Assembly: GCA_028870995.1 (NCBI GenBank)
Contig: JAGWOI010000011.1
Location: forward strand, 5,373 to 69,372
Source of the DNA: Candidatus Omnitrophota bacterium
GTDB lineage: Bacteria; Omnitrophota; Gorgyraeia; Zapsychrales; Fredricksoniimonadaceae
DNA length: 64,000 nucleotides
Reading direction: 5' to 3'
Part shown: one piece after another, positions 19,376 through 54,809 of the stretch
Position numbering within the stretch: position 1 is the first letter of the stretch
How the letters are laid out: the number at the start of each line of letters is the position of its first letter
The notes under the pieces: model-generated
Databases searched by the model: none
The model's input: only the letters and a program-made list of their open reading frames with translations
What the model was told of the DNA's origin: nothing
Program-made: the position numbers and the translations under genes

Positions 19376-20024
19376 TTGGACCGTTTCTAGGCATTATATT
19401 GCTATGTATTAACTTACAACAGAAGTGTCCCCATATTTGGTCAATTCAATATATTGGTAAACATCCTTATTCTTAAGATTTTCATAAAATTTTGCACTGG
19501 AATAAATATAATCGCAAGCCTTTGAAACAATTCCAGCACGCACCGGATTACAATGAATATAATCCAAACACTCAAGGATGTATTTTTCTTCCATAATTGG
19601 TTTACTTTGAAATCGGCCTTGCCAGACATGCCCCACATATCCGTACTTCCGACGGTATTTGAGACTGAAAGACAATAATATAGCCTGCATTATCTTGGAA
19701 ATGTTATGCACTTCCCCTGCTTCCATGACCATATGAACGTGATTATCCATTAATACGAATCCATAAATTTTGATTTTCATGCGCTCTTGATATTTTTGGA
19801 TGGACTTAAACAAGTTTTCTTTATCTGATTTTAATTTTAAAATGTTTTGACGGTTATTCCCTCTAAAGATGACATGATACACAGCATTTCCATAATAAAT
19901 TCTTTTAAGGCGGGACATAGTGACTCCTTTATGGGGGGAGGTTGTGTTAAGAAAATAATGAACTGTGAGGGACAGTTCAATCAGAAACTTCACTCTACCA
20001 TGGGGATATGTAGAAACGGTCCAA
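19376..20024 (-). mobile_element. IS200/IS605-like or RAYT-type minimal element, about 650 bp, bounded by 14-bp perfect inverted repeats, very AT-rich
   Basis: ttggaccgtttcta at 19376-19389 and its exact reverse complement tagaaacggtccaa at 20011-20024. The interior is about 25-35% GC versus about 57% for the flanks and encodes a single HUH Y1 transposase. Confidence 0.65.
19409..19918 (-). CDS. HUH-family Y1 transposase (IS200-like / REP-associated tyrosine transposase)
   Basis: HUH motif DNHVHMV and a catalytic-Tyr region (YIYSSAKFY). I place the start at the internal ATG (MSRLKRIYYG...) because it is preceded by AAAGGAG at -7, whereas the upstream GTG-initiated extension has no RBS. Confidence 0.7.
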   Translation of the reverse strand: MSRLKRIYYGNAVYHVIFRGNNRQNILKLKSDKENLFKSIQKYQERMKIKIYGFVLMDNHVHMVMEAGEVHNISKIMQAILLSFSLKYRRKYGYVGHVWQGRFQSKPIMEEKYILECLDYIHCNPVRAGIVSKACDYIYSSAKFYENLKNKDVYQYIELTKYGDTSVVS

Positions 20025-28695: not shown

Positions 28696-28722
28696 TTAGC
28701 ACTACCAAATCTGGAGTGCTAA
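28696..28722 (-). promoter_or_regulatory. CIRCE operator (HrcA site) overlapping the -10 of the groES promoter
   Basis: Minus strand reads TTAGCACTC-N9-TAGTGCTAA, which differs from the consensus TTAGCACTC-N9-GAGTGCTAA by one base. Confidence 0.8.
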
Positions 28723-28749
28723 TATAGCGGCAGATAAAAATTTTGTCAA
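28721..28749 (-). promoter_or_regulatory. sigma70-type promoter of groES-groEL (TTGACA-N17-TATATT)
   Basis: On the minus strand, TTGACA is at 28749-28744, then a 17-nt spacer, then TATATT at 28726-28721. The last two bases overlap CIRCE. Confidence 0.6.
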
Positions 28750-28756
28750 GAAAATT

Positions 28757-28783
28757 TTAGCAGTGAATTTAATCGAGTGCTAA
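28757..28783 (-). promoter_or_regulatory. second, upstream CIRCE-like operator
   Basis: Minus strand reads TTAGCACTC-N9-CACTGCTAA, with a perfect left half and two mismatches in the right half. It overlaps the stop codon of the upstream 1254-aa gene. Confidence 0.55.
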
Positions 28784-31700
28784 GATTGCTTTGAGATTGA
28801 CAGGAAGGACATTGAGGATTTGGATTTCGACGCCGGAAAAATTCCCCCGCCGGAATTGGGCGATCATAGCAGGATCAAAAGTAATATTAACCTTCGAGCC
28901 AACGCTTTCCAGGTTCAAATTTCTTGAATTTAAGTCGATACCGCCGGGCTCTGCCTCCGCCAACACCGGCTTATGCAAAACCCCCTGCCTTATCTTGACG
29001 GCGCGATTCAATTTTTCCAATTCGCGCTCAGGTAATCCGCTGTTGGAGATCATCCTTATAACTCCTTTAAGCTGGCTGTCATTGGCGGAATTGATGGCTC
29101 GAAGCAGACTGTCCCCCATGGTGATCTGTGCCTCTTCTTCAACAACATTGTGGGCCATTGCCGAATCTTGCGGAATAGTTATCCCGGTTTCTGTCAATTG
29201 GCCAACAATGGAACCATCCCTAGCGACTTCTCCTTGGGCGTCAATCATGTACCGGCCAGGTTTTTGTATATCAATCAACAGTCCCGGACTGTGCTTGACA
29301 AGTTGAAAGCCTCTTTGGATGAGATATTGAGGAACCCTACCTTCAGCGATCACTCGTTTTGCTCCTGAGACATCTTTCCAAAGATTATCAAGACTCCAGC
29401 CGGGATTCTGAACTTTGAGCCCGTCAATGTGAATTTCCACCCCTTTTCCGGCTTTAATGATCAAGGTCCCGTCCACATCCACATTTTTAAGATAAATATT
29501 GTCACCTTCTATCCTGACCACTGCCTTTGAAGACCAGACGCCGCCGCTTAACTTATCGCGGACATCCAAAATCGTCGGTGCCCAACCGGGCGTATAAACA
29601 AATTTGGCCCCATCAAACCATGGGAACTGAACATCCTCTTTAACGGTTTCATTGCCCTTTTTAACTTCAATTTCAAAGGGAATAGTGCGTTCGATCCCTT
29701 GAATTCCGGCCCCTGGAAAAGTGACCCCCCCCATCTGGGCAGCAATCCTGCGGTTATTTTGGTAATACATACCTTCAACCGCAAAGGGGCTTTCAAGGAA
29801 CGCACCGTCCTTCAAACGCTTATAACTTTCCGGATAATCATTCTTAAGAGCGGCAAAAACGAAACGGGGCTCAAAACTCGTCACACCCACCTTTGATCCG
29901 TCAAACCACACGGCAGCATCCTGCATATTATTTTCCGCACGCATGGGTTTGGCCAGTTCCTCGCTGCCCGGTTTGGTTTTAGGATTTAAAAGAAAAGGAA
30001 CCTGCCCCTTGGTCTTTTCGACCGCAGCCAACCATGAATCTATTTTCATCGTAAAGACGTTGATGTTGCCGGCATACTGGCTTTCAATGGCCTTTAATTT
30101 CGGTCTTTTATTAATGAAGTTATATTCAATATTCCTGGTGATAACTTTGCCTTGCCTGGCCTTAACCTCCTTCAAAACTTCCGAGATCTTGTCCGCCATC
30201 GACTCGAAGCCCGGAATGTTATTGTGCACATAATCAATTGTATCAACCAACACCCTGTGATCAGGCCCTACATATCCTTTTTGCTGTAGAAGCCCCATAA
30301 GGACGCCGCTTAAACCTCCAGAAACCTTATCAAGGTCCTCCAGCGTCAAGGGATTGCCTGTAAGGGTCATTAAAATTCCTGTCGCCTCGCCGGGTTTACG
30401 TTTGACACCGACAAGGTTCATGTCATCACCGCGCTCCACGGCATTGGCCAAGAGCGGCAGGATGGCATTCCACGTCTCCACATTAGTGTCCTGATAAAAA
30501 AGCAATTGAGCCTTGCCCCTGGCCTGGAAATATTTTACCAGCCCTGAACGGTACAGCATTTCATGAATGTCGCCATGACCTCTGGGATTTTCGCCTAGTT
30601 TGTATTGACCTTCCTTGGAAAGGCTGGCATTCATGTCCTTGACCAGGGGGACCATGTTCTGGCGGATGAGAATAATTTGCCCCAACCGGGCTTGAGGATC
30701 AACTTCTTGCGTTGAATCAACCACTGAATAGCCCCTGAGACCATAAGAATGATGCTCCTCCAACATTTTAATGGTGGCATCATGCGTCTTATCTGAAGTC
30801 ATAATGATAAAGGGAATTTCAACAGGTCGACCGGTCATCTTCAAATAGGCTTTTTGTTTAGCAAGGATTTCTTCGGCATCTTTCTGAAGGAACGGTTCAC
30901 CGGTGATTAAATCAACAGGAATCCCGACCTTAGGGCCGTTATACCCCAACCTGTCGCCCGCCCCTCCCGCGACCTTTACTAAAACCAATTGATTGAGATA
31001 GCCGACACCTCTTTGAGTATAGTCCAAATAATCCTGATTGATTCCGTCAAAAACCTTGCCTTGGGGGACTTGGGGAGTATAGCCATCCGTAGGATCAACA
31101 TCCTTGGCGTTTTTAAGAAGATTACGGACAAGGCCCTTGTAACCCGCCAAGCCGCCTTGCAGCTCTTTGTTCTTACGCGATACTTGGTCCAAGAAACTTT
31201 TTTTCTTGTCATCATTAATGCCGGGAGCATCCAAGTCCCGCATCAAGTCCTGTTCTCCTATATCTACCAATAATTTGATCGTAGCCAGGTTTTCTGCGGA
31301 AGACAGGACCCCCGCTTCGATATTCTGTAAAGCCGCTTCAGGTACACCTTTTGCCCGTAATTCCGCCAACATCGCTGCGTTAGGGCCGCTACCGGCTTCC
31401 TCAGTGAGCCCCTTGATGGTATAATACCTCCCAGGGACCGCTTCGAATGCCGCTTTAGCCTCTGCTGGAGTGGCCATAGCCAAATCCCTGACCGGCGTCA
31501 AACCGCCGGAAAAATATTTACGCGGGACTGTCTGTTCCGTGGCCGGATCGGTCTCTTCTTTAATAAAATTAAACACACCTCTTTTATAAGCCTGGACATA
31601 TTGATTATAAATTTTCTCCTGGATAGCAGGGTCACTCACATTGACGCCGTTGACCTTGGATTTATCGGTATAAACCTGGTTGAGCAGGGCATGTTTCAAA

Positions 31701-32533
31701 TTTTGTTTGAACCAAAAAGCCAGGATCATGGAATTATAAATCTGGCGCATCCGGGCAAAATTTTTACCGGTATTAACTTCCTTTTCAATGGCCGGAAGAA
31801 TGACCTGGCGCACGACCTGGGCGCCGAGATTATTGACATTGGCGGAATCACCTACGGGCGCATGTTTGCTTAAAGCCAGGTAGTCTTCGTCCAGCATGAC
31901 CTTCAAATGGCTTTTGACCACAAAAACGGTGTTGCCGTGACTGTAAACCTTGGCCGTATCCGGCAAAATCCACACCTTATTAAAAGTGTTCACGGGGATC
32001 TGGGTCGTGCCGTACATCCGCGCGGCCTTGGCATAAACCGCGTCCCAAAAATCCTTGCCCAGATCCCTTCCCGGATAGATCAAGGAAGCGGTCAACTGTT
32101 TCAATAAATAATCCTGCGCCAGCATGTCACGACCCAATACTGTCTGCCCTAAATCTTTGGGAATAATATGCTGATTCTCATAAGGGGAAAGGTTGACCCA
32201 TTGATTGTCTTCCGGGATGGTCAGGCAGGCCAAAAAATATTTGATCAGCCGGTTCGATTCTTTTTTAACCTGCTGGGCATTTAAACCGCTGTTGCCGGTG
32301 CTGACGATGAAATCCATCAATAAAGGATTTTCAGGGTGGATGGTCAAACCGGTCAACATCAGGGGCACATAAGCTGGAGATAAATTCACCATCGTTCCCG
32401 GTTGAGGCAGGCCAAGTACGCCCCCTTGCGCGCGTGCTTGGGGCATAACACCAAAGCTGACGATCAGGGCCGCAATAAGACATGAGCTGATGAAACGCGA
32501 ATTCCAGGTTTGGCGGATGGAAGAAAAAATCAT
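28769..32533 (-). CDS. large exported multidomain protein with a UDP-sugar pyrophosphorylase-like (UDPGP/USP family) core
   Basis: Sec signal peptide (MIFSSIRQTWNSRFISSCLIAALIVSFGVMPQARA/QG). Central nucleotidyltransferase signature LVLVKVAGGAGDRLGYNGPKVGIPV...IPFIIMTSDKTHDATIKMLEEH...GENPRGHGDIHE followed by a beta-helix-like segment. About 450 aa at the N-terminus and about 200 aa at the C-terminus are unassigned. GC is about 43-47% versus about 57% for the neighbours. AGGAGA RBS and a TTGACA -35 lie upstream. Confidence 0.7.
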   Translation of the reverse strand: MIFSSIRQTWNSRFISSCLIAALIVSFGVMPQARAQGGVLGLPQPGTMVNLSPAYVPLMLTGLTIHPENPLLMDFIVSTGNSGLNAQQVKKESNRLIKYFLACLTIPEDNQWVNLSPYENQHIIPKDLGQTVLGRDMLAQDYLLKQLTASLIYPGRDLGKDFWDAVYAKAARMYGTTQIPVNTFNKVWILPDTAKVYSHGNTVFVVKSHLKVMLDEDYLALSKHAPVGDSANVNNLGAQVVRQVILPAIEKEVNTGKNFARMRQIYNSMILAFWFKQNLKHALLNQVYTDKSKVNGVNVSDPAIQEKIYNQYVQAYKRGVFNFIKEETDPATEQTVPRKYFSGGLTPVRDLAMATPAEAKAAFEAVPGRYYTIKGLTEEAGSGPNAAMLAELRAKGVPEAALQNIEAGVLSSAENLATIKLLVDIGEQDLMRDLDAPGINDDKKKSFLDQVSRKNKELQGGLAGYKGLVRNLLKNAKDVDPTDGYTPQVPQGKVFDGINQDYLDYTQRGVGYLNQLVLVKVAGGAGDRLGYNGPKVGIPVDLITGEPFLQKDAEEILAKQKAYLKMTGRPVEIPFIIMTSDKTHDATIKMLEEHHSYGLRGYSVVDSTQEVDPQARLGQIILIRQNMVPLVKDMNASLSKEGQYKLGENPRGHGDIHEMLYRSGLVKYFQARGKAQLLFYQDTNVETWNAILPLLANAVERGDDMNLVGVKRKPGEATGILMTLTGNPLTLEDLDKVSGGLSGVLMGLLQQKGYVGPDHRVLVDTIDYVHNNIPGFESMADKISEVLKEVKARQGKVITRNIEYNFINKRPKLKAIESQYAGNINVFTMKIDSWLAAVEKTKGQVPFLLNPKTKPGSEELAKPMRAENNMQDAAVWFDGSKVGVTSFEPRFVFAALKNDYPESYKRLKDGAFLESPFAVEGMYYQNNRRIAAQMGGVTFPGAGIQGIERTIPFEIEVKKGNETVKEDVQFPWFDGAKFVYTPGWAPTILDVRDKLSGGVWSSKAVVRIEGDNIYLKNVDVDGTLIIKAGKGVEIHIDGLKVQNPGWSLDNLWKDVSGAKRVIAEGRVPQYLIQRGFQLVKHSPGLLIDIQKPGRYMIDAQGEVARDGSIVGQLTETGITIPQDSAMAHNVVEEEAQITMGDSLLRAINSANDSQLKGVIRMISNSGLPERELEKLNRAVKIRQGVLHKPVLAEAEPGGIDLNSRNLNLESVGSKVNITFDPAMIAQFRRGNFSGVEIQILNVLPVNLKAILALD

Positions 32534-32589
32534 TTAATCTCCTGCGCTAAATTGAGGTTAGCAAACGCTTCCTAGAAGGATTTAACGAA

Positions 32590-32630
32590 AGCTTAACATA
32601 TGACCAATGATTGTCAAGTTTACAACCTAT
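32590..32630 (-). promoter_or_regulatory. putative promoter of the 1254-aa gene (perfect TTGACA -35)
   Basis: On the minus strand, TTGACA is at 32627-32622 followed by an AT-rich weak -10 (TAAGCT or TATGTT) and an AGGAGA RBS before ATG 32533. Confidence 0.3.
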
Positions 32631-35349: not shown

Positions 35350-35880
35350 TCATTTGGTTGCTTCTTTTTCAATGGCATCCAGCATGCCCTCTACCATTCT
35401 ATCACTGCGCGTGAAAATAAACTGCCTGATAAAGGTGACCCTGGACTCATATCGGATCTCCACCTCACTGGCATCACCCAGGGAATGGACCAAAATGTTC
35501 AAATGCGCCAGGGTGCCGTACAGACCCCAATAGTGCCTTTTGATCGCGGTCATGATCAACAGGTTCTGGTAGCCGTTATGCTCATAACGCTCGTTGCGCT
35601 CATAAACGGAAGGCAGGGACTCTTCGGCGACGCTCCATCCCTTGTTCCTTAATACATAGACAACGGCACCGGTCACCTTCTGGTAGTTTTCCTGGATTTT
35701 ACGGTCATAGGGATGATTTGCCGTGCCGATATATTCGGATAGGGGCGCAGCAGCGCAGCCAGACAAGGCCAACAGACACAAGATTAAGCTTAGATTAACA
35801 GGAACTCGACATAGGCCTTTAAAAGTCGTTTTTGAATACCGCTGGAGCCCCGCCCGTCTACATCGCCGATTCTGCCACAC
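35350..35880 (-). CDS. lipoprotein of unknown function, start uncertain
   Basis: Lipobox LILCLLALSGC. The six-frame ORF extends to 36129 and overlaps the MazG-like gene. I chose GTG 35880 (MWQNRRCRRAGLQRYSKTTFKGLCRVPVNLSLILCLLALSGC). ATG 35967 is an alternative. Neither start has a clear SD. Confidence 0.4.
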   Translation of the reverse strand: MWQNRRCRRAGLQRYSKTTFKGLCRVPVNLSLILCLLALSGCAAAPLSEYIGTANHPYDRKIQENYQKVTGAVVYVLRNKGWSVAEESLPSVYERNERYEHNGYQNLLIMTAIKRHYWGLYGTLAHLNILVHSLGDASEVEIRYESRVTFIRQFIFTRSDRMVEGMLDAIEKEATK

Positions 35881-35983
35881 AGCCCAAAGGGCGTTGTGTG
35901 GCTGAAATATTAGAAAAGACGGGCGGACAAAGGCGACCGCGGTTGAGAAAATGACTTTTAAGGGCATATGTCGGGCTGTTGAA

Positions 35984-36295
35984 TTAACAAATCTTTCCAT
36001 GTTTGTACGGGCGTAATTTATTCTTCTCCGATTTCTTGACGATCTCCGCCTGGATATCGATGCCCAACCCCCCGCACAAGTCAAACAGGCGGATAAAGGT
36101 GTCAGCCAATTCTTCACGGAAATTATCATGATCCTGGTGCCTGTAGCCTTCCATAGCCTCAGCCAGTTCGGTGACGATGAGCATCAAGGCTTCGCCGATA
36201 TTGCGCTTTTCATCCCAAAAACCTTTTTCCTTGGCGATACTGTGGCAAAGCTCACACCATTGTTTAAGGCTTAAGTTTTCGTAATTCAGGCTCAT
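35984..36295 (-). CDS. MazG-like nucleotide pyrophosphohydrolase (small single-domain type)
   Basis: 103 aa with MazG-type helices (LMLIVTELAEAMEGYRH...EELADTFIRLFDLCGGLGIDIQAEIVKKSEKNKLR). Confidence 0.6.
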   Translation of the reverse strand: MSLNYENLSLKQWCELCHSIAKEKGFWDEKRNIGEALMLIVTELAEAMEGYRHQDHDNFREELADTFIRLFDLCGGLGIDIQAEIVKKSEKNKLRPYKHGKIC

Positions 36296-36961: not shown

Positions 36962-37110
36962 TGGTCTTTGTCCAAATGCTCGTGCAGCAAATCAGTCAGA
37001 TAATTGATCTTGCGGATCAAAATGATGGGGAATACGATCATCCACGCCTGAAAGGCCAAGGCCAAAAATGCCTGGAAGGGGGTTACGGACAAATTAATTG
37101 AGTTTTCCAT
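36958..37110 (-). CDS. unannotated 50-aa single-TM small protein
   Basis: ATG at 37110 preceded by GGAGAAAAATT. Translation is MENSINLSVTPFQAFLALAFQAWMIVFPIILIRKINYLTDLLHEHLDKDH. Its TGA overlaps the TTG start of the RluA gene. It falls below the 60-aa cut-off of the supplied ORF track. Confidence 0.35.
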   Translation of the reverse strand: MENSINLSVTPFQAFLALAFQAWMIVFPIILIRKINYLTDLLHEHLDKDH

Positions 37111-37474
37111 AATTTTTCTCCAACTGGCTCTCTATAAACTCATTGATGGCCTGACTGTCCTTGGGAGCTATGTCGCTGAAGAAAATGGCCGTGTTGTAAT
37201 ACTCACCGTCATTGGCCGCCTGCACGCGGACGATGACGCCCTGGCAGCTGACTTTTTTGGTCACCATCTTATCATTTCTTTTAAAAGGCAAAAGCAGGTG
37301 GATCTTAAGCTTGGTCATCACTTCAAGCCGCTGCTCGACGCGGCAAAAAGCGCCGGAACAGCTTAAGTTCCAGGTTTCCGTAAGCACATCCCCATGGTCA
37401 CTGGAAATCTTGATGGGGATCTTGCTCTCTAGTCGAGGATGACGGCGCTTTTCCCGGGAAAAATGCGGCGGCAC
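37094..37474 (-). CDS. PilZ-domain protein (c-di-GMP binding)
   Basis: RxxxR (RRHPR) and N-x-S-x-x-G (NLSCSGA) PilZ motifs. The six-frame ORF extends to 37531 and overlaps the zinc-ribbon gene. GTG 37474, preceded by AGGGGGAG, removes the overlap. Confidence 0.6.
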   Translation of the reverse strand: MPPHFSREKRRHPRLESKIPIKISSDHGDVLTETWNLSCSGAFCRVEQRLEVMTKLKIHLLLPFKRNDKMVTKKVSCQGVIVRVQAANDGEYYNTAIFFSDIAPKDSQAINEFIESQLEKNYGKLN

Positions 37475-37487
37475 GGACTCCCCCTTC

Positions 37488-37685
37488 TTAAGCCTGAGGC
37501 TTGTCTTCAGATGCTTTTTCAGCGGCGGCATCCTTCTTGGAGGCCTGGGCCTTTTTGAAACAATTATTATTGCAATAATAGGCGCCGTTGCGATAAAAAC
37601 GCCGTGCTCTTTTTAGCGGTTTTTTACAAGCAGGACAGTTCTTGACTTCTTCGACAACCGGGGCTTGTACGGCAGCTTCAGCCAT
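37488..37685 (-). CDS. small zinc-ribbon protein (C-P-A-C ... C-N-N-N-C)
   Basis: 65 aa with two Cys pairs 17 residues apart, resembling TRASH or YacG-like treble-clef ribbons. Lys/Ala-rich tail. Confidence 0.5.
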   Translation of the reverse strand: MAEAAVQAPVVEEVKNCPACKKPLKRARRFYRNGAYYCNNNCFKKAQASKKDAAAEKASEDKPQA

Positions 37686-53324: not shown

Positions 53325-54809
53325 ATGAAAAAAAATCTCTTCAGCAGCGCCTGGGATATTCCTCTGGGCCTCATGATTTGTTCTGTTGTTTTCGGCTATA
53401 TTTGTCTTCGCGCCTCCCTTATATCAATATCCCATGATGAAGCGCTGACCTACCTGATACATGTTCATAGCAGTTGGAAGGAAATATTGTTCCATCCACA
53501 ATATCCGGCCTCCAACAACCACCTGCTCAACACCTTATTCATCAAAATTTTGGTCCACTGGTTCGGCCCTTCCGTATTCGTCCTGCGCATCCCTGCCCTG
53601 GCAGGCTGCCTGTTATACATGGCCGCCGGCTTTAAAATCCTGCGCCTGTTTTCGAAAGGCCTGCCTTTTGTCGTAGGCCTTACCCTGCTGATAACCAACC
53701 CCTTGATGATGGACCTCTTTTCCTGCGCCCGCGGTTACTCTTTGGCTCTGGGAGTCTTCATGCTGGCGCTGTATTATTGTTTCAAAAGGTTTTCCAGTAA
53801 TGACCGATTTAATAAAAATAATTACGGCGCTATAGGCGCGTCCACCCTCTCCGCCCTCTCACAAATATCATTTGTTAACACTTATTTTGTCATCGCCTAC
53901 CTGCTCGCTTTTTTACAAATATGCCTCTTTTTAAAAGAGAAGGATTCTGAACCTTCTGGCAGAAATTCTCCCCTGCCCATCCTCATAGCCTTAATTTCAA
54001 GCAGCTTGGTCCTGGGGCTGGTCTACAGCCCCTTTGTCCTGGGCTTAATGGCGCTACCCCCTTATGGGGGCTATGACGGTTTTGTAAAAAATACGATTGC
54101 CAGCCTTGGCTTTGACATCTTCCAGAGAGGCAGCATGAATCCCATTGCCCTATCGGCCCTGGTTATTGGAATACTGTTGTGCATCCTTATGGCGCTTTGG
54201 GGTTTGATCAAGAGCGGTTCTAAAGGAAAATATTCCACCCATCATAAATTTTTGTTTTTAACAGCCTTGCTGCTGATCTACATTTCCGTACTTATTAAAT
54301 CGGAAGCGATCTTTATACAAATCCTTTATCCGGAAGGCAGGACCGCCCTCTATTTTCTCCCGCTGTTTTTCCTGTTTATCTTACTGTTGCCCGACAACTT
54401 CAACCGACTGACCGGCCCTTTGAATAAGACGGCCAACATAGCCTTTTATACCCTCTGTTCAGTCATTATCTTCCACGGCCTTTGCAGCATCAACTTGAAC
54501 AATTTCTATATTTGGGAATATGACGCCTGCACCAAGAAGGTCTTGACCTTCATCGGCCATGAAATGAAAGAGCACCCGAAAAAGAAATACACCATCGGCC
54601 TCAATTGGGTTCTTGAACCAAGCTCCAATTACTACATCATCTTCTGGAAAATGAAGCAACTAAAGCCGGCCAGCCGCAAAGGTCCTGACGGTGTTTACGA
54701 CTTTTATTATCTGCTTGCCTCCGACCTTGACATCCTTAAAAAATATAACCTGCGTGTCGTAAAATCTTATAAACTATCCGGCACTTTCTTGGCTGAACCA
54801 ATCCATTAA
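53325..54809 (+). CDS. GT-C-fold glycosyltransferase-like polytopic membrane protein (PMT/ArnT-like)
   Basis: 494 aa with 10 or more TM helices and a DE motif in the first extracytoplasmic loop (SISHDEALTY). Lower GC, about 45%, and one of the few plus-strand genes. Confidence 0.5.
   Translation: MKKNLFSSAWDIPLGLMICSVVFGYICLRASLISISHDEALTYLIHVHSSWKEILFHPQYPASNNHLLNTLFIKILVHWFGPSVFVLRIPALAGCLLYMAAGFKILRLFSKGLPFVVGLTLLITNPLMMDLFSCARGYSLALGVFMLALYYCFKRFSSNDRFNKNNYGAIGASTLSALSQISFVNTYFVIAYLLAFLQICLFLKEKDSEPSGRNSPLPILIALISSSLVLGLVYSPFVLGLMALPPYGGYDGFVKNTIASLGFDIFQRGSMNPIALSALVIGILLCILMALWGLIKSGSKGKYSTHHKFLFLTALLLIYISVLIKSEAIFIQILYPEGRTALYFLPLFFLFILLLPDNFNRLTGPLNKTANIAFYTLCSVIIFHGLCSINLNNFYIWEYDACTKKVLTFIGHEMKEHPKKKYTIGLNWVLEPSSNYYIIFWKMKQLKPASRKGPDGVYDFYYLLASDLDILKKYNLRVVKSYKLSGTFLAEPIH

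Follow-up and report, generated by a model that had tools for sequence, protein, structure and literature searches.

A UDP-sugar pyrophosphorylase behind a predicted Sec signal in Omnitrophota belongs to a large family of proteins with conserved flanking modules and diverse payloads

Gene and protein architecture

The genome of a Candidatus Omnitrophota bacterium (assembly GCA_028870995.1, contig JAGWOI010000011.1) contains, within the 64,000-nt stretch of DNA analyzed here (the window), an open reading frame (ORF) on the minus strand at positions 28769-32533 that is read from an ATG start and encodes a protein of 1254 amino acids (aa), hereafter the query. This protein carries an apparently intact UDP-sugar pyrophosphorylase (USP) behind a predicted Sec-type signal peptide, a combination that a first-pass annotation, correct as to the position and length of the ORF, treated as a one-off. 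It belongs instead to a family of about 8,000 sequence clusters in which the same modules surround many different payloads, so that the question shifts from an exported USP to the nature of the carrier cassette. The protein reads, from its N-terminus, signal peptide, N-module, linker, USP payload, linker, and C-module. Its features are as follows, the ORF being taken from the list of open reading frames and the module borders from family alignments.

28769..32533, minus strand: whole ORF, 1254 aa plus stop, ATG start
32429..32533, minus strand: predicted Sec-type signal peptide, aa 1-35, with R7 and R13 in the n-region, h-region F14-M30, and c-region P31-Q-A-R-A35
31499..32428, minus strand: N-module, aa 36-345, an orphan alpha+beta domain with the pattern LPxPGTMVxLSPAYVP...HPENPLLFDFIV...NLSPY...DYxLKQ...PRKYFSGG
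31250..31498, minus strand: linker 1, aa 346-428, with DLAM at aa 350-353 (31475-31486) and NAAM at aa 385-388 (31370-31381)
29219..31249, minus strand: UDP-sugar pyrophosphorylase payload, aa 429-1105, with N-terminal, catalytic, and C-terminal domains
30164..30355, minus strand: insertion of ~64 aa in the USP, aa ~727-790, common only to the query and its closest relative, P0001
28961..29218, minus strand: linker 2, aa 1106-1191, with DSAM at aa 1123-1126 (29156-29167)
28772..28960, minus strand: C-module, aa 1192-1254, at the extreme C-terminus, with the pattern GGIDLNxxNL...FDPAMIAQFRRGNFSGV..I..V.PV...ILAL

A large family with conserved ends and variable payloads

At least 2,794 relatives came up in a search with the full-length protein, most of them covering ~27-32% of the query; those with a source name are all labelled Candidatus Omnitrophota or Omnitrophica. 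An exhaustive HMMER search with the N-module yielded 7,980 clusters (50% identity), of which 6,171 reach E<=1e-30, and in most of the best 150 hits the match begins at about residue 28-49. The N-module is shared by every one of the top 120 hits (120/120), at 47-80% identity over the first ~345-400 residues, and the typical pattern in the top hits is a further match of 40-75% over the last ~60 residues with no match in the middle. Both modules occur in 164 of 203 members, with 200-2,659 aa (median 818) lying between them, and none is without a payload. Members are mid-sized proteins of about 600-4,100 aa, and the modules are far more conserved than the payloads they enclose.

Payloads recognizable by Pfam among the top hits include many enzymes of sugar metabolism (PGM/PMM, PGI, transaldolase, hexokinase, the 6-phosphogluconolactonase type, GHMP kinase, PGK, and enolase), other enzymes such as adenylate kinase, glutamate dehydrogenase, PEP-utilising enzymes (PPDK), NAPRT, an epimerase, and methyltransferases, and non-metabolic domains such as a response regulator, acyl carrier protein (ACP), a J-domain, and LysM. 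An unbiased sample of 44 members held 21 Pfam families, each in one member, and most payloads there had no Pfam match; the sample includes adenylate kinase, glutamate dehydrogenase, an aminotransferase, an epimerase, and an AprA-like methyltransferase, along with a response regulator, HATPase_c, PP-binding, NUDIX, and metallo-beta-lactamase domains. Two members, P0008 and P0045, combine PGM/PMM and UDPGP domains in one chain, which amounts to two consecutive steps of sugar activation and suggests that real pathway steps are exported together.

A scan of GTDB representative genomes with six query-specific peptide patterns placed the N-module mostly in metagenome-assembled genomes (MAGs) labelled Omnitrophota, and several genomes held 3-5 or more copies. 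The N-module was also found in bins with other labels, namely a third-party set of 'uncultured Planctomycetales' and single bins labelled Peribacteria, archaeon, or simply 'bacterium' (loci L003, L006, L007, L010, L011, L013, L068, L073, and others). Two of the Planctomycetales-labelled carriers, L068 and L073, have a uvrB gene ~84% identical to that of the window, the same level as in Omnitrophota-labelled MAGs, and their labels therefore look imprecise and are probably wrong or too coarse. No description of a module-bracketed cassette of this kind was found in the searchable literature. What is new lies in the two orphan domains, which define ~8,000 clusters and are absent from Pfam and NCBIfam, the USP part being a known enzyme family.

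The UDP-sugar pyrophosphorylase payload

Known USPs are free-standing and, as far as is known, cytosolic enzymes of ~600 aa. Over aa 501-684 of the query, Pfam UDPGP (PF01704) scores 64.6 bits (cut-off 22; E=9e-18), and solved USPs align in two stretches, aa 429-731 and 818-1047, that cover the N-terminal, catalytic, and C-terminal domains. The best solved relative is the bacterial MbUSP (PDB 9UML/9UMK; E=1e-54 to 6e-56), and the Leishmania major enzyme, LmUSP (PDB 3OGZ/3OH0-4 and 8TG2), matches at E about 1e-23 to 1e-25. The likeness is thus to a three-domain enzyme, C-terminal domain included, and the motifs from which a UDPGP/USP core had first been proposed (VAGGAGDRLGYNGPKVGIPV, IPFIIMTSDKTH, and GENPRGHGD) are all present in the ORF, an assignment that the profile search and the homology to solved enzymes bear out. 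The solved relatives differ in being free-standing proteins of 469-641 aa, whereas the query, at 1254 aa, adds a signal and two modules, and the ~64-aa insertion that belongs to its payload is missing from MbUSP, LmUSP, and the other USP-type payloads of Omnitrophota.

Residues singled out in LmUSP are R127, K134, K398, and K434, the last being the catalytic lysine (PMC12584669). Mapped through the alignments to solved USPs, these correspond to R528, K535, K862 (in LAK862P), and K897 (in AALK897ND) of the query, so the catalytic lysine is kept. LmUSP E126 becomes D527; Y430 becomes F, a change also seen in bacterial MbUSP. The nucleotide-binding loop (NB-loop) of the query, G523-G-A-G-D-R528-L-G-Y-N-G-P-K535, keeps the GGxGxRLG...K pattern, and the other hallmark motifs follow at GHGD 652, QDTN 681, IEYN 802, and NPK 850. 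The equivalents of R528, K535, K862, and K897, together with GHGD, QDTN, EYN, and NPK, are invariant in six USP-type family members. The payload is assigned on these grounds to the USP-type UDPGP enzymes; it is apparently intact and, with its active-site residues kept, looks active in the reaction UTP + sugar-1-phosphate <-> UDP-sugar + pyrophosphate (PPi). Because the catalytic residues are conserved, the earlier suggestion of a repurposed binding module is disfavored.

The closest relative of the query, P0001, is 77% identical to it over the payload. Searches for unfused relatives with the payload alone, as a single sequence and as a six-sequence profile, with a word index that was swamped, returned P0001, one fragment, and a weak match to P0204 (24% identity). 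One USP-type member, P0002 (1381 aa), has a degenerate NB-loop (AAGNAQRLS, as compared with GGxGxRLG), LGHGW for GHGD, and FFQASN for QDTN; its payload is probably a catalytically dead paralogue, and not all payloads of the family need therefore be active.

N-terminal signal and membrane topology

The N-terminus of the query places two arginines before a run of ~17 hydrophobic residues (14-30), which is followed by a predicted cleavage site, ARA35 and then Q36-G. The Sec signal first proposed from the sequence retains its support in all three regions of the peptide, with the correction that the predicted motif is ARA followed by Q and not AQA. Relatives also have signal-like N-termini. In 114 of 114 members with a complete N-terminus the n-region is strongly basic (on average 2.4 K+R and 0.08 D+E) and a small-x-small site lies ~10 residues ahead of the LPxPG start of the N-module; the uncharged stretch in these N-termini has a median of 18 aa, and the segment after it carries on average 0.6 K/R as compared with 0.7 D/E. 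P31 and A35 are nearly invariant in the family alignment, and the query has only one segment resembling a transmembrane helix.

Other types of N-terminal signal were considered and rejected. A twin-arginine (Tat) signal is excluded by the lack of an RR pair in the query, which has I-R-Q; RR occurs only in some close paralogues, and most of the family is without it. A lipoprotein signal, processed by signal peptidase II, is excluded by the lack of a lipobox at the end of the h-region, as the sole early cysteine, C18, lies ahead of the hydrophobic core and no cysteine follows. An N-out anchor was likewise rejected on sequence grounds. Judged by its sequence, then, the N-terminus has every feature expected of a cleaved signal of the Sec/signal peptidase I type. 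As the charge distribution is strongly N-in, the positive-inside rule, a consistent heuristic, would place the bulk of the protein outside the cytoplasmic membrane, and we infer that the protein is exported and its signal cleaved. A cytoplasm-type enzyme behind an export signal is a real paradox.

The main rival of an export cassette would dissolve this paradox by keeping the protein inside. In such an arrangement the N-terminal helix would stay uncleaved and hold the payloads on the inner face of the membrane or in an internal compartment, where the USP and other payloads would use their normal cytoplasmic substrates and the modules would organize a membrane-associated metabolon. The great majority of payloads are indeed enzymes or signalling domains of a cytoplasmic type, dependent on NTPs, NAD, or partners in the cytoplasm, and the authors of a preprint on giant Omnitrophota genes (discussed below) warn that an extracellular call for glycolytic domains could be a topology error. 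The charge bias of the family runs strongly the other way, however, and a helix-breaking proline with a small-x-small site follows the h-region in 114 of 114 members, while no second transmembrane segment is present to return the chain to the inside. A tethered cytoplasmic scaffold is, on this evidence, unlikely.

The two conserved modules

The N-module of the query is 55-80% identical to that of proteins with other payloads, and about 55 columns are invariant in an alignment of 62 sequences. An AlphaFold2 model of aa 1-440, made from this 62-sequence alignment, has a mean pLDDT of 71.8 and a pTM of 0.68, with several core blocks above 85, and shows two long beta-hairpins (59-78 and 187-214) and helices of 15-30 residues. 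The C-module has the consensus GGIDLNxxNL...FDPAMIAQF(K/R)RG(D/N)FSGV...P(I/V) and is 40-75% identical in proteins with other payloads. Modelled alone with AlphaFold2, it gives a hairpin and a helix at low confidence (pTM 0.33) and may need a partner to fold.

Neither module could be tied to a known domain. A Foldseek search of the N-module model against PDB gave no match at E<=0.001, and searches of the N-module profile against PDB sequences, NCBIfam, PADLOC, and PHROGs found nothing. UDPGP is the sole Pfam family that matches the whole ORF at E<=1, and NCBIfam at E<=10 offers nothing meaningful for the modules. No Pfam or NCBIfam match connects either module to the C-terminal sorting domain of the type IX secretion system (T9SS), to an autotransporter barrel, or to other known sorting domains. 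The flanks described in the first-pass annotation as unassigned thus have no assignment in Pfam, NCBIfam, or PDB, yet they are far from anonymous, being two conserved modules of a very large family.

The weak Foldseek matches of the N-module raised the idea that it forms a pore. Fifteen of the top 50 are components of the ClyA, NheA, MakA/B/E, SmhA, or AhlB toxins, which are of similar size (about 300-360 aa) and have a similar mix of helices and beta-hairpin, and an N-module that inserted into a target membrane in the manner of ClyA and carried the payload into the cytoplasm of a prey cell would resolve the substrate paradox. Profile alignment with hhalign against E. coli HlyE, however, gave a probability of 0.3%, and the TM score was <=0.18. 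With no significant fold or profile similarity, the ClyA-family lead was rejected as noise, and a pore-forming or translocating N-module is considered highly improbable.

A recurrent linker motif

The linkers of the query contain a short motif, [DN]xAM, at aa 350, 385, and 1123, sites that bracket the region of USP homology (429-1105). In 204 family proteins the motif occurs 756 times, as compared with 57 +/- 7 in shuffled sequences, a 13-fold enrichment, with a mean of 3.7 and a maximum of 13 per protein and a count that rises with protein length (r=0.45). A T or A often comes next, and in longer members further copies lie between sub-domains. The related D-x-A-[ML] lies <=110 aa after the N-module in 79 of 117 members (~26% expected) and <=45 aa before the C-module in 60 of 116 members (~12% expected), both expectations being rough and drawn from a background of 0.27 per 100 aa. 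[DN]xAM is not enriched in the rest of the window's proteins (1 seen, 2.8 expected).

The motif may mark processing sites or hinges. If they are processing sites, the product would be an exported polyprotein that releases the N-module, a free USP (about aa 389-1126), and a C-terminal piece, with the modules serving as transient pro-domains for export or chaperoning; this could coexist with the export cassette favored below. The strength of the enrichment, its growth with length, the placement of the motif near both module edges and on either side of the USP, and its lack of enrichment in other window proteins all speak for such processing. No protease is known for a site of this type, though, and no conserved neighboring protease emerged from the neighbor analysis of the loci. 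One copy (FDPAM), moreover, belongs to the folded C-module itself, so the motif may serve a structural role, such as capping a helix, and not be a cleavage site. Release of the payload by processing is therefore regarded as possible but rather doubtful.

Synteny, payload turnover, and base composition

The order uvrB-coaX-[N-module gene] recurs in eight loci of other MAGs (L001, L002, L004, L005, L007, L059, L068, and L073), in which uvrB is 80-86% and coaX 68-79% identical to the window. Payloads in this syntenic slot differ between loci. L001 carries other linker domains and, after them, a UDPGP-like nucleotidyltransferase distinct from that of the query, L005 (P0022-like) and L007 have unrecognized payloads, and L073 resembles the PGI-type P0007; the ORFs of L002 and L068 are interrupted after 130 and 198 aa and could reflect a pseudogene or an assembly error. 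A conserved slot with turnover of its cargo fits recombination within the conserved flanks. Across 79 loci no partner gene recurs, and none points to a dedicated secretion or processing partner. No identical full protein was found on record; a 473-aa fragment from a Ca. Omnitrophica MAG (P0121, KGJ11_10325) has an N-module 100% identical to that of the query, and no second copy of the N- or C-module was found within the 64-kb window.

Low GC had been put forward as a sign of horizontal acquisition. The ORF does lie below the window norm, at 47.8% GC and 52.5% GC at third codon positions (GC3), as compared with 53.0 +/- 2.6% and 65.9 +/- 5.1% in the 32 window genes of >=250 aa, a real but modest deviation (z about -2.0 for GC and -2.6 for GC3); the values first given, 43-47% for the ORF and about 57% for its neighbors, do not hold, as groEL has 54.7% and uvrB 54.9%. 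GC3 is even along the signal, N-module, USP, and C-module (0.48-0.57). Of 46 loci compared, 35 have a family gene whose GC3 lies below that of the genes beside it (mean -4.9 points, Wilcoxon p=2e-4), and the flanking genes in these 46 sampled loci have ~45% GC as compared with ~53% in the window. Exchange among Omnitrophota genomes is a possible cause of the low GC of the family.

These data bear on the idea that the gene is a foreign, horizontally acquired effector, or a non-catalytic sugar-nucleotide binding domain derived from a eukaryote-type USP fold. Its GC and GC3 below the window norm and the fact that the USP subfamily is best known from eukaryotes are compatible with such an origin. 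The best structural relative, however, is a solved bacterial USP, and the query keeps the catalytic residues. Both modules are found in MAGs of Omnitrophota, and gene order at the locus is shared across species. Since low GC is family-wide and even along the gene, it gives no sign of foreign origin of the query gene. Acquisition from outside is therefore unlikely, a foreign origin being largely refuted, and the reading as a foreign effector or binding domain retains only a very slight probability.

Transcription signals and the surrounding window

The start and end of the ORF adjoin the following regulatory features.

32539..32543, minus strand: ribosome-binding site AGGAG, 5 nt 5' of the ATG
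28757..28783, plus strand: upstream CIRCE-like operator of groES, 2 mismatches, overlapping the ORF stop codon
28696..28722, minus strand: second CIRCE-like operator of groES, 1 mismatch
28749..28721, minus strand: groES promoter, TTGACA-17-TATATT, belonging to the downstream gene and not to the ORF

The AGGAG sequence agrees with the strong ribosome-binding site noted at first reading. A promoter of the ORF's own was also proposed, and an exact TTGACA does stand 5' of it at 32612-32617, but no acceptable -10 hexamer lies 16-18 nt away and the promoter scan made no call. The ORF follows coaX at a distance of 111 nt in the same orientation, and coaX in turn overlaps uvrB, so the ORF may be co-transcribed with uvrB-coaX. 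Two CIRCE-like operators were seen near groES where 0 are expected by chance, and they bracket its -35/-10 promoter; the TAA stop of the ORF (28769-28771) falls inside the upstream operator, just as first described. This is a tandem HrcA-type arrangement before groES in an Omnitrophota genome, with the upstream copy reaching into the coding end of a family gene.

The surrounding window is ordinary chromosome, with guaA, an IMPDH-like gene, groESL, coaX, uvrB, dnaE, hisS, aspS, and ileS, as well as mreB, PBP2, and addAB-like genes. A small PilZ-domain gene (37094-37531, minus strand) lies a few kb upstream of the family gene, and small pilZ genes are reported to adjoin giant Omnitrophota genes (bioRxiv 10.1101/2023.11.21.568195). 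By far the most deviant window gene in composition is an IS200-like (Y1 transposase) ORF at 19409-19993 (minus strand), between hisS and dnaE, which lies in a sharp low-GC island with 34.9% GC and 36% GC3. The sole long plus-strand gene in a minus-strand region, at 53325-54809, has 45.5% GC, a hydrophobic N-terminus, and no Pfam match. The ORF at 35350-36129 (minus strand), also without a Pfam match, overlaps a MazG-like ORF (35984-36295) and has an internal lipobox-like LALSGC after a hydrophobic stretch; its product is probably a lipoprotein whose true start lies 3' of the listed ATG.

Comparison with known systems

Conserved delivery modules joined to variable payloads are known from polymorphic toxins, PE/PPE proteins, T9SS cargo, and cellulosomal enzymes. 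T9SS cargo proteins combine a Sec signal and a payload with a conserved C-terminal sorting domain, and cellulosomal enzymes bear dockerin tags. The cassette family resembles both in that diverse catalytic payloads bear a Sec signal at the front and a short conserved module at the C-terminus, a likeness implying, by analogy, that its members may share a common sorting or docking step. It differs in that the C-module is shorter (~60 aa) and not confidently a beta-sandwich, and the payloads are not hydrolases; since the ORF has no Pfam match besides UDPGP, no known family of sorting domains is detected in it.

Sugar-metabolism enzymes are also exported by intracellular parasites. Chlamydia exports glycogen enzymes to its inclusion. 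Microsporidia secrete hexokinases, adding signal peptides to cytoplasmic-type sugar enzymes (PMC6460350). The cassette shares with these the addition of a signal to a sugar-metabolism enzyme, which in the parasites acts in a compartment derived from the host, where nucleotides and sugar phosphates are plentiful. The parasite examples are, however, single enzymes with a plain or type III secretion signal, whereas the cassette comprises thousands of proteins with dedicated flanking modules, and host or prey association of Omnitrophota has been proposed at the level of the phylum.

Polymorphic toxins such as Rhs, CdiA, MuF, and LXG proteins, and the mycobacterial PE/PPE proteins, resemble the family in having a conserved terminal domain, swappable payloads, and several copies per genome (PMC12226406). 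The payloads of the family differ in being housekeeping-type metabolic and signalling enzymes and not toxins, and the cassette has a second conserved module at its C-terminus and an N-module unrelated to known trafficking domains. Among the 79 loci neither an immunity gene nor any other conserved neighbor recurs beside the family genes, and the neighbors of the query are coaX and groES.

A published parallel in the same phylum is provided by the giant Omnitrophota proteins, 'Archaeovorins' and others (bioRxiv 10.1101/2023.11.21.568195; 10.64898/2026.06.07.730766). These bear signal peptides or transmembrane segments, and PGM/PMM, PGI, TPI, aldolase, methyltransferase, response-regulator, and HATPase domains within them are predicted to be extracytoplasmic. 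They exceed 10,000 aa, and the reports describe no bracket of N- and C-modules, whereas the mid-sized family described here is defined by the two modules.

A proposed export cassette

The reading favored here, judged about as likely as not, is a Sec-exported carrier cassette with an active USP that works outside the cytoplasm of its producer. The protein would be exported via Sec and its signal cut at ARA35, ahead of Q36. The N- and C-modules would together form a common carrier, sorting, or anchoring device, with the payload either held at the cell envelope or surface or passed to an attached host or prey cell. There the USP would draw on pools of nucleotide and sugar phosphate that only the contents of another cell supply. 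Payloads would be swapped between cassettes by recombination in the conserved flanks. Observed in the sequences are the protein layout, the size of the family and its spread over lineages, the conserved modules, the intact active-site residues of the USP, the signal-peptide features, the turnover of payloads in a syntenic slot, and the low GC of the whole family; inferred are, besides export and cleavage, what the two modules do, where the payload acts, and how recombination proceeds.

Several findings weigh against this proposal. Export is predicted from sequence heuristics, and the family loci offer no recurrent partner gene. The USP and most recognizable payloads need UTP, ATP, NAD, or partner proteins, and response regulators, the J-domain, and ACP likewise depend on partners, none of these needs being expected to be met in the periplasm or outside the cell. 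Typical extracellular payload domains are almost absent, with LysM seen once and no glycoside hydrolase or peptidase family listed. Because no relative of known function can be detected for the N-module and the C-module models poorly alone, the roles given to the modules are guesses.

The substrate and partner needs also bear on where the payloads would go, as the payload spectrum fits a cytoplasm-like destination better than simple surface display. Since the recognizable payloads need UTP, ATP, NAD, or partners, the destination is most plausibly one rich in another cell's contents, for example the inside of an attached host or the interface between predator and prey. Members of the Omnitrophota, which are ultra-small, widespread, and uncultured, are suspected of living as predators or parasites (PMC10066038), and a predatory or host-dependent way of life, as proposed for the phylum (PMC10066038; PMC12583861), agrees with such a destination. 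Export is also in line with the published prediction of an extracellular place for the glycolytic and PGM domains in giant Omnitrophota proteins (bioRxiv 10.1101/2023.11.21.568195). The description of the protein in the first-pass annotation as secreted and effector-like is compatible with these data, and its treatment as a one-off is not, given the size of the family.

Significance for Omnitrophota biology

The architecture as a whole suggests a way of sending normally cytoplasmic enzymes out of the cell. A wider claim, offered tentatively, is that the cassette is a dedicated, phylum-wide export or delivery system by which Omnitrophota place a repertoire of cytoplasm-type enzymes outside their own cytoplasm. 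If this is true, the exported repertoire would include sugar activation, glycolytic and ATP-regenerating steps, nucleotide enzymes, methyltransferases, and signalling domains. It would amount either to externalized metabolism at the predator-prey interface or to an arsenal of metabolic effectors that reprogram an attached host cell, with the USP of the window as one such effector.

The family would give a concrete handle on how Omnitrophota exploit other cells, and its two new domains could receive profile models. Many candidate exported enzymes are now counted as cytoplasmic steps in metabolic reconstructions from MAGs, and pathway inferences for the phylum may be affected. The cassette would also represent a sequence-defined system for the sorting and use of folded, cofactor-dependent enzymes outside the bacterial cytoplasm. 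Should the proteins prove to be cytoplasmic, they would be a striking case of misleading canonical signal-peptide features, which would matter for secretome predictions across the phylum.

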